Assembly (NCBI GenBank): GCA_030594205.1
Contig: JAUVFR010000001.1
Location: forward strand, 156,252 to 220,251
DNA: 64,000 nucleotides
Source of the DNA: Methanobacteriota archaeon
GTDB lineage: Archaea; Thermoplasmatota; Thermoplasmata; RBG-16-68-12; JAJISG01
Direction: 5' to 3'
Shown piece by piece: positions 11,776 to 21,518 of the stretch (positions are counted from its first letter, which is position 1; every line of letters starts with the position of its first letter). Both the position numbers and the translations under genes were made by a program. Under the pieces are notes generated by a model. The model was given only the letters and a program-made list of their open reading frames with translations, ran no database searches and had not been told where the DNA came from.

Positions 11776-12171
11776 CTAAGAGTCCACCAGGCTCGCGATC
11801 CGCTTCGGCGCCCCCCCGGCTCTCAGCTTAGCCACCGCCGCCTCTAGGATGGATATGAGCCTCTCTCGTTCGGATGGCCCTCGGCCCTCCATAGTCTGTC
11901 GCACCTGGCGAATCGAGGCAGGATCGGGGTCGACCGATTTCCGCGTGGTCCCGCCTCGGAGGAGCAGGAAGGCCACGAGGGCCAGGGCCACGCCGGCCGC
12001 GAGGAAGAAAAGGCTGAGTGCCGCCAGGCCTACCTGCAGCAGGAGAGCGAAGATGGCGTCCATGACCGCCCTTGGCGGTGCGAAGGCCAGGATTCGAACC
12101 TGGGGGAACCCCTTCGGGACTAGGCCCTGAATCCAGCGCCGTTGACAGAACTGGCACCCAAGATTCAGCAC
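11776..12171 (-). CDS. Small membrane protein or gene fragment whose middle part is paralogous to residues ~40-95 of the 8-TM protein at 13696..14703; possible pseudogene
   Basis: 131-aa ORF. Its segment FAPPRAVMDAIFALLLQVGLAALSLFFLAAGVALALVAFLLLRGGTTRKSV matches FAPPGAVIDALFDLLLTVGLAALNFAFLAAGVSLALMAFLLLRGGITRKSV of the 335-aa protein. The ORF reads through the tRNA-Leu-like fragment. Confidence 0.3.
   Translation of the reverse strand: MLNLGCQFCQRRWIQGLVPKGFPQVRILAFAPPRAVMDAIFALLLQVGLAALSLFFLAAGVALALVAFLLLRGGTTRKSVDPDPASIRQVRQTMEGRGPSERERLISILEAAVAKLRAGGAPKRIASLVDS
11930..12082. repeat. About 150-bp segment duplicated (about 80% identity) at 14406..14558, abutting a truncated tRNA-Leu-like fragment
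   Basis: Direct nucleotide comparison: gaccgatttccgcgtgGtcccgcctcggaggagcaggaaggcca... in both copies. The two copies diverge exactly where the tRNA-like sequence begins (about 12082). Confidence 0.6.
12079..12155 (-). tRNA. Truncated tRNA-Leu-like element: D-arm through 3' acceptor strand, with no matching 5' acceptor strand (pseudo-tRNA / att-site remnant)
   Basis: Minus-strand sequence GCCAGTTCTGTCAACGGCGCTGGATTCAGGGCCTAGTCCCGAAGGGGTTCCCCCAGGTTCGAATCCTGGCCTTCGCACC is about 88% identical to the 3' 60 nt of the intact tRNA-Leu(CAG) at 21434..21518, including the long variable arm and T-arm. No GCGAAGG 5' strand is present upstream and the anticodon stem has one mismatch. Confidence 0.5.
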
Positions 12172-12349
12172 ACAGAGCTTACAGATGACGGCAAGGCAAC
12201 ATTTGCACTGTTAGGTGGGCCTTCCGGGACTTTCGATGACCACGACTTGTCGCGTTATGGTTGGAGTCATGGGCCCCTCTTCCCTCGAGGAGGAAGTGTC
12301 AAAAGTCCTGGACGTCATCCAGGCGCAAAGGGGCTATGGGGCTGACAGA

Positions 12350-13174
12350 ATGAGGGGAGTGACGGGCATCGGAGGCGTCTTCTTCAAGTCGACGGATCCC
12401 GAGGAACTGGTGGCCTGGTACCAGGAGCACCTCGGGATCCAACTTCGGGAGGACGGGTCCGTCGACTTCGAATGGCGGGAGCGCAACGCGCCCCACGAGG
12501 TGGGCTACACTGTGTGGGCTCCTTTCCGGGAGGACACCACGTACTTCGATCCGAGCGAGAAGTCTTTCATGATCAACTTCCGCGTGGCCGATCTCGACTC
12601 CCTCCTGAGACAGCTCCAGGAGGAGGGCGTCGTGGTGGACGACCGGGTCGAGGATACCCCCCATGGTCGGTTCGGCTGGATCATGGACCCCGAGGGGAAC
12701 CGCGTGGAGCTGTGGGAGCCTGTCCCCAGGCCAGACAGCGCATCCCCGGCCTCCCTCCCCGGCGTCGTCGTCCCTGGTCGCGGGCTGGGGGCCGAGGTCA
12801 TGGCCGACCCGGAGCTACGGTCACGGCTGCGTCGCCTCTTCGGGTTCGACCCGGTCCCCGGGACCCTCAACGTGCTGCTCCTCGACCCCCTGCCGGAACC
12901 CCTTACTTCCTATGTGGGCTGGACGGATCTAGGCTTCGCGGAGGACGACCCTCAGGTCCCCGGTCGGCGCGGGCTCCGCTATGGCTCCGTTCTCATCGAG
13001 GGGAAGTATCAGGGAATCGCCTTCCAGGGTGATGAGCCCCGTTACCCTTCGAACCATATCGAGTTGATCAGCGACCGCCATCTGCGGGATACGCTGGGAC
13101 TCCGCAATCTCGACCGTATATGCTTCGAAATCTTGCCGACATCTGTAGATTCGGCCACCGAGCCCGACGACTGA
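12350..13174 (+). CDS. Fusion protein: N-terminal VOC/glyoxalase-like domain plus C-terminal archaeal CTP-dependent riboflavin kinase (RibK, DUF120/MJ0056-type) domain (ORF also open from 12215)
   Basis: N-domain MRGVTGIGGVFFKSTDPEELVAWYQEHLG...FGWIMDPEGNRVELWEP is paralogous to 8718..9104. C-domain LRRLFGFDPVPGTLNVLL...IEGKYQGIAFQ...RYPSNHIELISDRHLRDTLGLRNLDRICFEI matches the MJ0056 RibK motifs (PYEGTLNLKL; TYHSSEIIEIIAP). Confidence 0.7.
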   Translation: MRGVTGIGGVFFKSTDPEELVAWYQEHLGIQLREDGSVDFEWRERNAPHEVGYTVWAPFREDTTYFDPSEKSFMINFRVADLDSLLRQLQEEGVVVDDRVEDTPHGRFGWIMDPEGNRVELWEPVPRPDSASPASLPGVVVPGRGLGAEVMADPELRSRLRRLFGFDPVPGTLNVLLLDPLPEPLTSYVGWTDLGFAEDDPQVPGRRGLRYGSVLIEGKYQGIAFQGDEPRYPSNHIELISDRHLRDTLGLRNLDRICFEILPTSVDSATEPDD

Positions 13175-13695
13175 GACAGTCGTCGTCTCGGGCGTGCTGC
13201 CGGAGCGCGCCGAGCATGATTCCTCTCCGCTCCGGAAATACGTCACCGAGCTCCCACTCACGGCCGACTTCCAAGGCCTGCCACTGAAGCAGCCCATTGC
13301 CTAGGTCCTTCTGTTCGAGGCAGTTCACAACCGCTCCGTGCTCCCTCGTGATCTGGGTGGCCCAACTGCAAGGGAGATTGACCCGAACGGTGGCTTCGAT
13401 CACCGCGCTGCCAATGTTCCGCCTGTTGTTTCCACCTAGCGAGGGCCCAGGTCAGAAAGTTTCCGAGCCGAGGACGTGGACAGCGGGTTATCATGCTCAT
13501 GACCCTATTGATCACTCGGGCGATTCGTTCGCAGAACTCTCGCTCGACATTTCATAGTCGTCGCTCCCCACCTGGGTCCATCAGTCCAGCTTTCGGACGC
13601 ATCGATCGCCCGGACAAATGGGGTCTGGTCGGGACGGCTCAGACCGCCCCTGACACATCAGGAGATGCCGTTCGACAGTCTGCCTGACTTCATCG

Positions 13696-20400: not shown

Positions 20401-21047
20401 TCGGTGAGCCGCTGGATCCCCTCCGGGCCGGAGTAGGTCCGGGCGATGTCCGCCATGACCGTGGCGACCAGGCCGAAGGCCTGCTCCCAGGGGACGTTCA
20501 GCCAGGACTCCTTCCCGCGGTTCTCGTAATACTGGGTCGGGGGCAGGCCGTCGAGCTGCCGCGGCATGCCGGCGTTCACCCAGTCCATAAATCCCTGGCG
20601 GACGTAGGCGCCCTTGACCCGCCGGTCCGAGTAGGCGCGCCGCACGTACGCGTGGCCGTTGGGGCAGATTCGGGGATCCCATCGGGCGGAGGCCTTGCTG
20701 CCGTAAAGGTCGGTGGCCTGGCTGTAGCCGTAGCTGGGGTCCACGTAGCGGACGATGCCGTTCTTCACGGCGGCCCTCAGCAGGCAACCGTGGGTATCGT
20801 TCGGTGCGCAGAGATAGTGGAAGGTGGAGTCCGGCTCGTAGATATTCCGATAGATGGCCTCCCAGTTTCGGTTTGGGTAGGTCTCCAGGGGGTTGAGGGA
20901 GGTGTCGATGGGGTCCACGTAGGTCAGGTTGACCAGCTCCCGAGGGAGGTACCGCGCTGCGAGGACGCTGGCGGCGGCCGCGGGGATCACGGCGAGGAAC
21001 TTCCGACGCGTGATTCCGCTGCTCTTCGAGCTCTCCTCATCCTGCAT
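17493..21047 (-). CDS. NarG-like Mo-bisPGD catalytic alpha subunit with Tat signal peptide (periplasmic-oriented pNar/Nxr-type)
   Basis: 1184 aa. Twin-arginine motif SSGITRRKFLAVIPAAAASVLAA. FS0-region FHYLCAPNDTHGCLLRAAVKNG ... ICPNG aligns with NarG HGVNCTGSCSWKIYVKNG ... GCPRG. Molybdopterin-binding signature EVIVIRPATDAAFALGVAHVLMRD. A 3-nt gap separates it from the beta gene. Confidence 0.9.
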   Translation of the reverse strand: MQDEESSKSSGITRRKFLAVIPAAAASVLAARYLPRELVNLTYVDPIDTSLNPLETYPNRNWEAIYRNIYEPDSTFHYLCAPNDTHGCLLRAAVKNGIVRYVDPSYGYSQATDLYGSKASARWDPRICPNGHAYVRRAYSDRRVKGAYVRQGFMDWVNAGMPRQLDGLPPTQYYENRGKESWLNVPWEQAFGLVATVMADIARTYSGPEGIQRLTDQGYDPAMVETANGVGVRTLKFRASMAWLSTLRFTGLERFANGTALLDAWIRNVTPAEAHGARTWDSYAWHTDLPPGHPMVTGTKTSDFDLYTAEHSDLITTWGMNWIATKMPEGHWLTEARLRGARVIVITTEYQSTANKGDEVIVIRPATDAAFALGVAHVLMRDSLYDTAYVKRFTDLPLLIRLDTRKLLQASDVFPGYTLANLTNYVQMLGPGESPPPFPDQGTQYLTQEQRQEWGDFVVWDSVSGAPEVATRDEVGDWDASSQQVDPVNPKPWYESRGIDPALEGRFNIILADGTTTVECRPLFDLMKQYVMENFDPSTASEICWAPVSAIESFAQSIAQNGGKTLFTVGMGPNHYWNNDLKDRLIFLLAGLTGSEGRFGGQVGSYAGNYRLEVFNGVGQWVLEDPFNLQLDPAQPAVLKKYKEDESAHFYNYGDRPLRVEGNLFMGATHMPTPTKSAWWVNGNSILGNAKWAHDVIVNTLPKMEMIVVNDWFWTATCEYADVVFGVPSWIERKLPDLYGACTNPFLQAVVPSPLPYIFDVKDDLEVFMGVAEELAKVTGDTRFSDQWKWVRDARMDVPGQRMINASNALKGYDFNEVVASCSKGIPFYVMVRTSPRITGWEQTNESKPWYTKTGRLEFYREEDEFLDAGENLPIWRETVDATYYEPAVIVSKPHPVIQPKGPADYGIDPADLRPETRQVRHVVKPWSEVRTTLHPLEAADPDYRFILYTPKYRHAAHSMGLSQDISAVYFGPFGDFYRHDKRTPYVGEGYVDMNPLDAKDLGIEDGDYIWVDGDPSDRPFRGWQGRPGDFKVMRWLVRARYYLGMPRRTARAWFHMFIATHGSVEGHETRLDGLAKSPRTGYQAGYRYGSHQSITRAWLKPTLLTDSLVRKDGMGQTLGKGFAKDIHGATGAPKESFVKITKAEAGGIGGVGLWRPAALGFRPTYENDAVLRYMRGEYHQGGG

Positions 21048-21433
21048 GCAGAATTCCGACCAGCCGACGCTAAATGGACCGAAATCTCGGTCTCCAATGA
21101 GGATTCAACCGAACATGTTCGGGGAGACGCCTAGGCCACTGTCGCCATTACACTTGTCGGTCTCTGAGGGCTGAGCGGACAGGCCTGCGCTCAAATGGTT
21201 CTCCGGACACTCGGAGGGGGGGTCAGGGGTGAGCACGAATGACGAGGGCGGGAGGAGCAGAAACGGAACTTCGACTGCAGGGCCTTCGTCGGAGTAGGAA
21301 CTGCAACTGTGGCGATAGGAGTCGCCGGGATGGCTGCAAGTGCCCCTGCATTCGTTGGGCTTCTTGGGGCAGGAGTGGTTTTCTGGTCCTTGGTCTGGGC
21401 AATCGAGGTCGCACCTCGAAGTTCAATTCGGAG

Positions 21434-21518
21434 TGCGGCGGCCAGGATTCGAACCTGGGAACCCCTACGGGACTAGACCCTGAATCTAGCGCCGTTGACC
21501 TGGCTTGGCTACCGCCGC
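21434..21518 (-). tRNA. tRNA-Leu (anticodon CAG), class II with long variable arm
   Basis: GCGGCGGTAGCCAAGCCAGGTCAACGGCGCTAGATTCAGGGTCTAGTCCCGTAGGGGTTCCCAGGTTCGAATCCTGGCCGCCGCA. The 7-bp acceptor stem pairs, the anticodon loop is TTCAGGG and the T-loop is TTCGAAT. CCA is not encoded. Confidence 0.85.

Follow-up and report, generated by a model that had tools for sequence, protein, structure and literature searches.

Attachment (att) sites of archaeal integrative elements favour the 3' ends of tRNA genes, the 5' limit varies and may take in the D loop, and archaeal tyrosine recombinases are described as exchanging strands at the anticodon loop (PMC8371274). The Thermoplasmata are not mentioned in the text of this review. 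For bacteria, integrase-less tRNA-linked islets and fixed remnants of genomic islands belong to the framework of Williams 2002, which we take as it is cited in the same review. We analysed a tRNA-linked locus in an archaeal contig whose nearest public relatives are uncultured Thermoplasmata archaea; the whole stretch of 64,000 nucleotides is referred to as the window. In this window, an operon of the nitrite oxidoreductase (NXR) type, a gene for a protein with eight transmembrane segments (8TM) and a VOC-RibK fusion gene lie between an intact tRNA-Leu(CAG) gene and a co-oriented partial copy of its 3' part. An earlier note on this DNA had read the arrangement as an island that brought in the respiratory capacity as horizontally acquired cargo. 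Comparison with related archaeal loci and contigs, labelled here by L-numbers (L001, L081 and so on), leads to a different picture: judged by its sequence, the partial copy is the scar of a site-specific integration, and the operon appears to be an old resident of the locus, surviving here as one of two former copies. In the following, V stands for the VOC-RibK fusion, M for the full 8TM gene, M' for an 8TM relic and p157 for a gene of the left flank.

Like the archaeal SSV-, pT26-2- and pNOB8-type elements with tyrosine recombinases (PMC8371274), the locus has the 3' part of a tRNA gene as target with a 5' limit at the D loop, and combines an intact tRNA rebuilt at one junction with a partial direct repeat at the other. 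The anticodon stems of the two tRNA copies, which are hybrids, also fit a strand exchange at or 5' of the anticodon loop as in these elements. In contrast to them, the window holds no recombinase gene, and a copy of a chromosomal operon stands in place of element genes. With the integrase-less bacterial islets, as far as the framework cited above describes them, the locus shares the direct repeat of the tRNA 3' part, the missing integrase and a degenerate distal repeat; unlike in these islets, the cargo is orthologous to genes that relatives carry at the same locus and an earlier copy has left a relic outside the repeat, which argues for duplication or replacement of resident genes and not for a gain. 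The closest counterparts are the elements in L081 and L088/L089, which agree with the window in the target tRNA-Leu(CAG), the att 5' limit and the signature of the P arm, and differ from it by carrying methylase, HipA-like or PD-(D/E)xK-type genes, a protein of 377-436 aa and a P' arm. The scar itself is one of the tRNA-targeted integrations by site-specific recombinases that are well known from archaea and bacteria; the particular element family appears to be undescribed, as do its arms and candidate recombinase. The operon in turn resembles NxrABC of Kuenenia and Nitrospira (PDB 7B04) in its full-length catalytic subunit with a twin-arginine translocation (TAT) motif, its iron-sulfur (Fe-S) and EB_dh haem-b subunits and its NarJ-like chaperone, and differs in being archaeal and in including the additional, conserved 8TM gene.

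A tRNA-Leu(CAG) fragment of att type

The intact tRNA-Leu(CAG) gene, the attL-type junction, occupies positions 21433..21518 on the minus strand (start at 21433 or 21434 in the calls of ARAGORN and Rfam) and is the only tRNA-Leu(CAG) called by the two programs (51 bits, E 1e-8); neither of them calls the partial copy. Using the tRNA as BLAST query against the window, we found tRNA positions 20-79, from the D loop to the T arm, at 12146-12085 (91.9% identity over 62 nt, E 1.8e-17), and a longer alignment pairs 12078-12146 with 21433-21499 (89.9% over 69 nt, E 4e-20), while the rest of the 64 kb gave no further tRNA match above 13 nt. Both copies have the same orientation and the fragment (12085..12146, minus strand; the attR-type scar) lies 9.29 kb away on the 3' side of the intact gene, so that BLAST bears out the pair of co-oriented copies about 9.3 kb apart, together with the 20-nt exact core, that had been seen before. 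This core, CCCAGGTTCGAATCCTGGCC, is the longest exact run and corresponds to the T arm. Apart from the T arm, the long variable arm and the complete anticodon arm with its CAG are represented in the fragment, as is the 3' strand of the D stem; the 5' strand of acceptor and D stem is missing, and so are the last 7 nt of the tRNA. Since the match covers the anticodon, variable and T arms, the copies share more than a common T arm, and the suggestion that the T arm alone explains the match falls away. The limits of 12079..12155 given earlier hold for the tRNA-derived part and have to be corrected at both ends: 12079-12084, the seeming acceptor end, derives from the 8TM gene, and 12147-12155 is part of an element-type arm and not tRNA. 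An independent public contig, L086, matches window positions 6886-15192 at 99.5% identity and has the identical arrangement of fragment, V and 8TM, which excludes an assembly artefact. As expected of an island, the interval thus has an intact tRNA at one end and, at the other, a direct repeat of the tRNA 3' part in the same orientation.

The nature of the fragment becomes apparent from the sequence adjoining it. At 12147..12185 on the minus strand, and nowhere else in the window, we found an element-type P arm with the signature GTGTGCTGAATCTTGGGT-GCCAG-TTCTGTCA-ACGGCG, where GCCAG-G-TCAACGGCGC is read in each of the intact tRNAs examined. All independent partial copies compared (window/L086, L081, L088, L090/L094/L096 and L097) have exactly 4 extra nt after GCCAG (GCCAG+8+ACGGCG) and a GTG motif about 13 nt upstream, and both features are absent from all intact tRNAs. 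The distal repeat therefore bears, again as in an island, an arm homologous to the attP of an element family, and the 5' limit of the fragment is identical to the att limit of the partial copies in L081, L088 and L090. Because this limit and the P-arm signature are common to the copies that bracket mobile-looking DNA in these relatives, the fragment qualifies as a genuine att-type scar of a mobile element integrating into tRNA-Leu(CAG). The geometry is that of attL and attR, as proposed in the earlier note.

Further evidence comes from the anticodon stems. The intact tRNA has exactly the sequence (100% identity) that is found in the tRNA of the distant L090 and L092 and in the att pieces of L088/L089. 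Pair 5 of the anticodon stem is A-T in the window tRNA, the L088 att site, L090 and L092, and G-C in L001, L081, L082, L083, L085 and L087. The fragment has the stem CTGGA..CCTAG, which combines an element-type 5' strand (A) with a native-type 3' strand (C), and the stems of the two copies are reciprocal hybrids. Two exchange routes fit these stems with two point changes each, either in the anticodon loop together with one compensatory change in the tRNA, or in the D loop together with two changes in the fragment. By either route, the 3' half of the intact tRNA would be element-derived and the fragment would keep native sequence. P arm and hybrid stems together indicate a site-specific integration in this lineage, as neither is supplied by plain tandem duplication or template-switch repair.

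Related elements at the same tRNA provide the context for this scar. L081 (JAZHCF013912955.1, locus 2692-9065), the closest relative by its right flank (94% nucleotide identity; synonymous divergence, dS, of 0.13 for R2), carries an intact tRNA-Leu(CAG) and, at a distance of 6.2 kb, a partial copy of 66 nt, and the interval encodes a C5 DNA methylase, a HhH-GPD glycosylase, a conserved 377-aa protein and several unannotated genes. L082 encodes the same flank protein, and the variable arm and first trailer bases of its native tRNA match the distal fragment of L081 and not the intact gene of L081. L081 and L082 thus look like an occupied and a native site, in which the tRNA would have been rebuilt at attL and the native 3' end displaced to attR. 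Homologues of the 377-aa protein form only six clusters. Two contigs with such homologues, L088 and L089, begin with tRNA-Leu positions 61-86, and L088 ends with positions 21-48 while L089 holds positions 34-81. The elements of L081, L088 and L089 share the 377-436-aa protein (P0151-P0156) and both P and P' arms, and their cargo comprises restriction-modification methylases, a HipA-like protein and a PD-(D/E)xK nuclease. In the alignment of the 377-436-aa family, the motifs MRY, GKGRGG, HSLGRH, IHP and RKY, read by eye, are invariant. No Pfam, PHROG or PDB sequence match was obtained for the L081 element proteins, including the 377-aa protein, and the AlphaFold2 model of the family is poor (predicted local distance difference test, pLDDT, of 45). 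As a lead, we propose the 377-436-aa protein as a candidate tyrosine-recombinase-like integrase.

The resident operon and the relic of a second copy

In L001, the right flank, the tRNA-Leu, the whole operon and the left flank are all arranged as in the window, and the fragment is missing; in L083 and L085, the operon likewise adjoins tRNA-Leu and right flank with no fragment. The operon is missing near the tRNA only in L081, which is rearranged, and in the distant L090 and L092, which keep right flank and tRNA, so that the site of the related genomes is not generally empty of the cargo. The GC content is 0.62-0.66 inside as well as outside the interval and no skew break occurs at either end. 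Together with the relic described below, the operon at the fragment-free tRNA of L001, L083 and L085 and the uniform composition imply that the respiratory capacity was already resident and not first brought by an island. The comparison of synteny and of composition, which the earlier note had itself proposed as checks, therefore speaks against horizontally acquired cargo on both counts, the L001 operon between both flanks being the very outcome named there as a refutation. We conclude that the operon most probably is an old resident of the locus, of which one of two former copies survives here.

The second copy has left its trace just outside the fragment. Positions 11928..12087 on the minus strand correspond to codons ~46-100 of the 8TM gene (M'), with 84.4% identity to 14403-14562 within M, 87.7% to L083 and 83.1% to L001. 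At 12085-12088, tRNA position 79 is joined to this relic: the tRNA-derived part ends ...TCCTGGCC and the 8TM-derived part goes on TTCGCACCGCC, and the source sequences, CCTGGCC|GCCGCAC in the tRNA and GGGGCC|TTCGCAC in the 8TM gene, identify a GGCC microhomology at the junction. On its other side, the relic runs into a chimeric 96-aa open reading frame (ORF; 11776..12066, minus strand), in which it is followed in frame by the C-terminal 43 residues of p157; this tail is 44% identical to the 157-aa protein of L001 (E 4e-8) up to both C-termini. L001 has three further pieces between 8TM and the p157 tail, namely a methyltransferase, a RIO kinase and the N-terminus of p157, none of which the window retains. 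This is most simply explained by a colinear array attR-operon'-8TM'-...-p157 that formerly stood outside the fragment and was reduced by two deletions. A third att remnant directly after the V stop codon, as predicted by a model of serial integration, was not found.

The surroundings of the operon differ between genomes. The slot between NarG and the tRNA is empty in L085, holds a GyrI-like gene in L083, a GyrI-like gene and V in L087, and in L001 a GyrI-like gene, an F420H2-quinone-reductase-like gene (d192), a frameshifted and truncated V and a ferredoxin gene. V lies between tRNA 3' end and NarG in L087 and L001, giving the order tRNA-V-Nxr, in contrast to tRNA-Nxr-V in the window, and no att remnants were found between V and NarG in these two relatives. 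Every segment common to the window and L001 has kept its relative orientation.

Concerning the origin of the surviving copy, divergence and trees give a hint. M and M' differ by 15.6% (dS 0.29 over a 51-codon core), whereas the neutral tRNA fragment of 58 nt has accumulated only two private substitutions and one indel. Neighbour-joining trees with bootstrap group the flank proteins of the window with those of L085 (100%), while the N-terminal half of NarG places L085 with L001/L083 (97%) and the window outside. At synonymous sites, the window NarG is closer to L001/L083 (dS 0.47) than to L085 (0.61), and NarG dS to the relatives is no larger than flank dS. The ratio of non-synonymous to synonymous divergence (dN/dS) of the window NarG is 0.10-0.14, in comparison to about 0.05 among L001, L083 and L085, and thus its protein evolves faster. 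Divergence, tree conflict and synonymous closeness weakly favour a copy that would have come in from a related lineage. Rooting the 8TM core with L080 was tried and rejected, as L080 is only ~53% identical, i.e. saturated.

Proposed history and competing explanations

The history that we propose would start with an integrative-element family targeting tRNA-Leu(CAG) in uncultured Thermoplasmata. A member of it would have integrated site-specifically, using an att site that spans the tRNA from D loop to 3' end, and left the intact tRNA as attL-type and the fragment as attR-type junction. The DNA between the junctions, i.e. the Nxr-type operon, 8TM, a truncated regulator gene and V, would be a second copy of a block resident in the clade and not foreign. 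The earlier resident copy would have stood just outside attR, continuous with the ancestral left flank, the two co-oriented copies being separated by V and the att scar. Two deletions would then have destroyed it, the first joining tRNA position 79 to 8TM codon ~46 at the GGCC microhomology and the second joining 8TM codon ~100 to the p157 tail, and would have left the relic of 160 nt in the chimeric ORF. The second copy could have come as cargo of the integrating circle, possibly from a close lineage and with the integrase acting in trans, or could have replaced the element genes later; we give about equal weight to both. The present structure has no integrase, as noted before, and no P' arm beside the tRNA, and we likewise regard it as a fixed, non-mobile remnant. 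Taken as a whole, this sequence of integration, second copy and destruction of the earlier copy is in our judgement probable, and we hold it with moderate confidence. A more specific version, in which a new tRNA-Leu(CAG)-specific element family with a novel tyrosine-recombinase-like integrase mobilised the NXR-type operon as a circle between close lineages and replaced the resident copy (xenologous replacement), is possible, and we put it forward tentatively.

Several observations weigh against this history. The P' arm (TATATAA..TACACACGTT..AAGCTT) of L081, L088, L089 and L090 is missing beside the window tRNA; its motifs were searched throughout the window and not found, and the spacer between tRNA and NarG resembles L089 only by 'CACTCC + 12 nt + GAGGTGCGA'. 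The interval ORFs contain no Pfam integrase, and tblastn and tblastx revealed no trace of the L081-family protein in the 64-kb window. V, which is native at the tRNA 3' end in L087, L001 and L090, here lies within the interval between the att junctions, its start pointing towards the P arm, and its place demands at least one extra step (capture, translocation or replacement) that is not uniquely reconstructed. The missing P' arm, the lack of a recombinase and the position of V are all at odds with a simple cargo model. The A-T type of the tRNA could in principle be an ancestral retention. As the dN/dS of the window NarG is raised, the incongruence of its tree may be a rate effect, and this rate effect could stem from past redundancy; moreover, dS of the flanks is almost saturated, and a relic of only 154-160 nt makes both the dating and the four-point tree weak. 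Finally, the integrase role of the 377-aa protein is unproven, given its lack of a database match and its poor AlphaFold model.

Among the alternatives, an ordinary element of the L081/L088 type might have integrated beside an unduplicated resident operon, after which inversions and translocations shuffled V, operon and attR and produced 8TM' as a by-product. The variable order of V and operon among genomes (tRNA-V-Nxr in L001 and L087) would suit this explanation, as would the inversion of the regulator remnant relative to L004 and the changing content of the NarG-tRNA slot (empty, g, g-V or g-d192-V'-fdx). We nevertheless think it unlikely, because the segments common to window and L001 keep their relative orientation, two deletions from a full colinear second copy are the simplest way to a co-oriented 8TM' joined to both attR and the p157 tail, and no single translocation reproduces the junctions J1-J5. 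One-step derivations from the order in L087/L001 were also tried and discarded: tandem duplication, circle excision with re-integration, and translocation each fail to reproduce all five junctions. The shortest paths to the window order pass through a two-copy intermediate and two or three deletions.

A recombinase-free event within the genome would have to be either a tandem duplication of the block from tRNA to V with subsequent deletions, or a copying of ~65 nt of tRNA and ~160 nt of 8TM into the gap between V and p157, similar to microhomology-mediated break-induced replication (MMBIR). Both would explain the 4-nt GGCC microhomology at the tRNA|8TM junction and the colinear, co-oriented pieces whose sources are 2-9 kb away, and the four-point distances weakly pair M with M'. 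The P arm with its +4 nt and GTG motif, however, does not occur in the window tRNA and is found in element-linked copies elsewhere, the fragment shares its 5' limit with the att limit of L081, L088 and L090, and the anticodon stems are reciprocal hybrids and not copies. The 15.6% between M and M' also contrasts with only 2-3 private changes in the fragment. The extraneous P arm, the hybrid stems and the divergence of the copies set the locus apart from a simple tandem segmental duplication, and we consider an event of this kind quite unlikely.

The explanation closest to the earlier note, a foreign island of 9.4 kb that carried the whole operon into a naive tRNA-Leu as new respiratory capacity and later lost its integrase by decay, seems very improbable to us. 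It is true that the attL/attR geometry and the att-type fragment are real, that the distant L090 and L092 have right flank and tRNA with no operon nearby, that NarG homologues are patchy over many phyla and that the closest relative L081 carries other DNA downstream of the tRNA. All this is outweighed by the orthologous operon that adjoins tRNA and flank in L001, L083 and L085 with no fragment, by the relic of the previous copy of the last gene, which is continuous with the ancestral left flank outside the fragment, and by the lack of any anomaly in GC content, skew or NarG dS, the latter not exceeding flank dS. That the fragment is a chance likeness or a decayed second tRNA-Leu gene sharing only the T arm has practically no chance of being true: the longest exact run of 20 nt is indeed the T arm, but E values of 2e-17 to 4e-20, the included CAG anticodon arm and long variable arm, the P-arm signature and the identical sequence on the independent contig L086 all contradict it.

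Genes of the interval and the tRNA-Leu(CAG) site

The gene content described before, i.e. the operon, 8TM and the VOC-RibK fusion, is confirmed by Pfam and the TAT motif. The catalytic molybdopterin subunit (NarG/NxrA-like, 1184 aa; 17493..21047, minus strand) has the TAT motif RRKFLAV and is 91% identical to its L001 counterpart; its best solved relative is Kuenenia NxrA (PDB 7B04_B, E 3.9e-251, residues 12-1179, full length), and an exact look-up of it in the assembly index gave no entry. It is followed on the same strand by a NarH/NxrB-like Fe-S subunit with four clusters (382 aa; 16341..17489), an EB_dh-family (NxrC/EbdC-like) haem-b subunit with a C-terminal transmembrane anchor (333 aa; 15330..16331) and a NarJ-type (Nitrate_red_del) assembly chaperone (225 aa; 14660..15337). 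With these three subunits, the TAT motif of the catalytic one and the chaperone, the operon has the marks of a periplasmic complex of the NXR/pNAR type (pNAR, periplasmic nitrate reductase; type II dimethyl sulfoxide reductase family), which it is predicted to encode; its direction, nitrite oxidation or nitrate reduction, is not given by sequence alone. The full-length 8TM gene (13696..14703, minus strand) belongs to no Pfam family. A homologue follows directly after NarJ in L001, L080, L005, L006 and L004 (16358-17359 in L004), and its presence there in several Thermoplasmata loci makes 8TM a part of the operon. The ~330-aa protein may be a lineage-specific membrane partner of the NXR-type complex.

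The low-coding stretch of ~500 bp at 13175..13695, already recognised as decayed, is real and appears as a rearrangement scar, whose only gene content is a truncated regulator. On the minus strand, 13284-13403 holds the first ~40 codons of a Bat/HTH_10-type regulator of the DmsR/NarO-like class, which is intact in L004 (245 aa) downstream of the 8TM gene; the remnant was detected solely by tblastx against L004 (65% over 40 aa, E 3e-16), and its orientation relative to the operon is opposite to that in L004. The window thus seems to have no intact regulator near the operon. V (12215..13174, plus strand) joins a VOC (glyoxalase) domain to the CTP (cytidine triphosphate)-dependent riboflavin kinase RibK and likely starts at an ATG near 12350. 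Such a fusion is very rare, with two homologous fusions (98% and 82% identical) in 5.8 billion clustered proteins. A standalone RibK natively neighbours the tRNA in L090, L094 and L096; downstream of the tRNA in the L090 lineage, it is accompanied by p157 and the left-flank VOC gene, which are native there as well. A VOC paralogue with 60% identity is found at window positions 8718-9089. Within the spacer between tRNA and NarG (21048..21432, minus strand), 21048-21125 is conserved NarG upstream sequence shared with L083, L001 and L085, and 21126-21432, found in this genome alone, holds a 67-aa ORF at 21223-21426. This ORF and the small ORFs of 13175-13695 have no Pfam, PHROGs or PDB sequence match.

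Other features near the tRNA vary as well. R1, a small membrane-protein gene 5' of the tRNA (window 21545-22046; 139-164 aa), is hypervariable with 62% amino acid identity to L001, and the block with 94% identity common to window and L081 begins only at 22047, which points to plasticity on both sides of the tRNA. In L092 (4587-8653), an adenine glycosylase gene lies between the tRNA 5' side and R2; the window has this gene in its left flank (9114-9710), a difference in placement that indicates larger rearrangements centred on tRNA-Leu. The tRNA-Leu of L083 (contig Ga0452210_021210, bases 1-10772; tRNA at 7604-7673) has an internal deletion of 16 nt, from right after GCCAG, the att 5' limit, into the anticodon loop, and has lost its ARAGORN call; either an imprecise excision or a mistake in the assembly may account for this. 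L090 (4275-5328) contains a mini-island of 0.9 kb with one UbiE-type methyltransferase gene between an intact tRNA-Leu and a 79-nt partial copy bearing the P arm.

With at least four independent partial copies that have a common arm, tRNA-Leu(CAG) is a recurrent integration hot spot in these archaea, and the locus points to an unannotated candidate recombinase family. An operon that lies between a tRNA and a tRNA fragment need not mean a horizontally acquired capacity. Our data further suggest that close relatives can exchange NXR-type operons at tRNA-Leu(CAG) or that such operons can be duplicated there, which bears on the distribution of nitrite and nitrate respiration among the Thermoplasmata.

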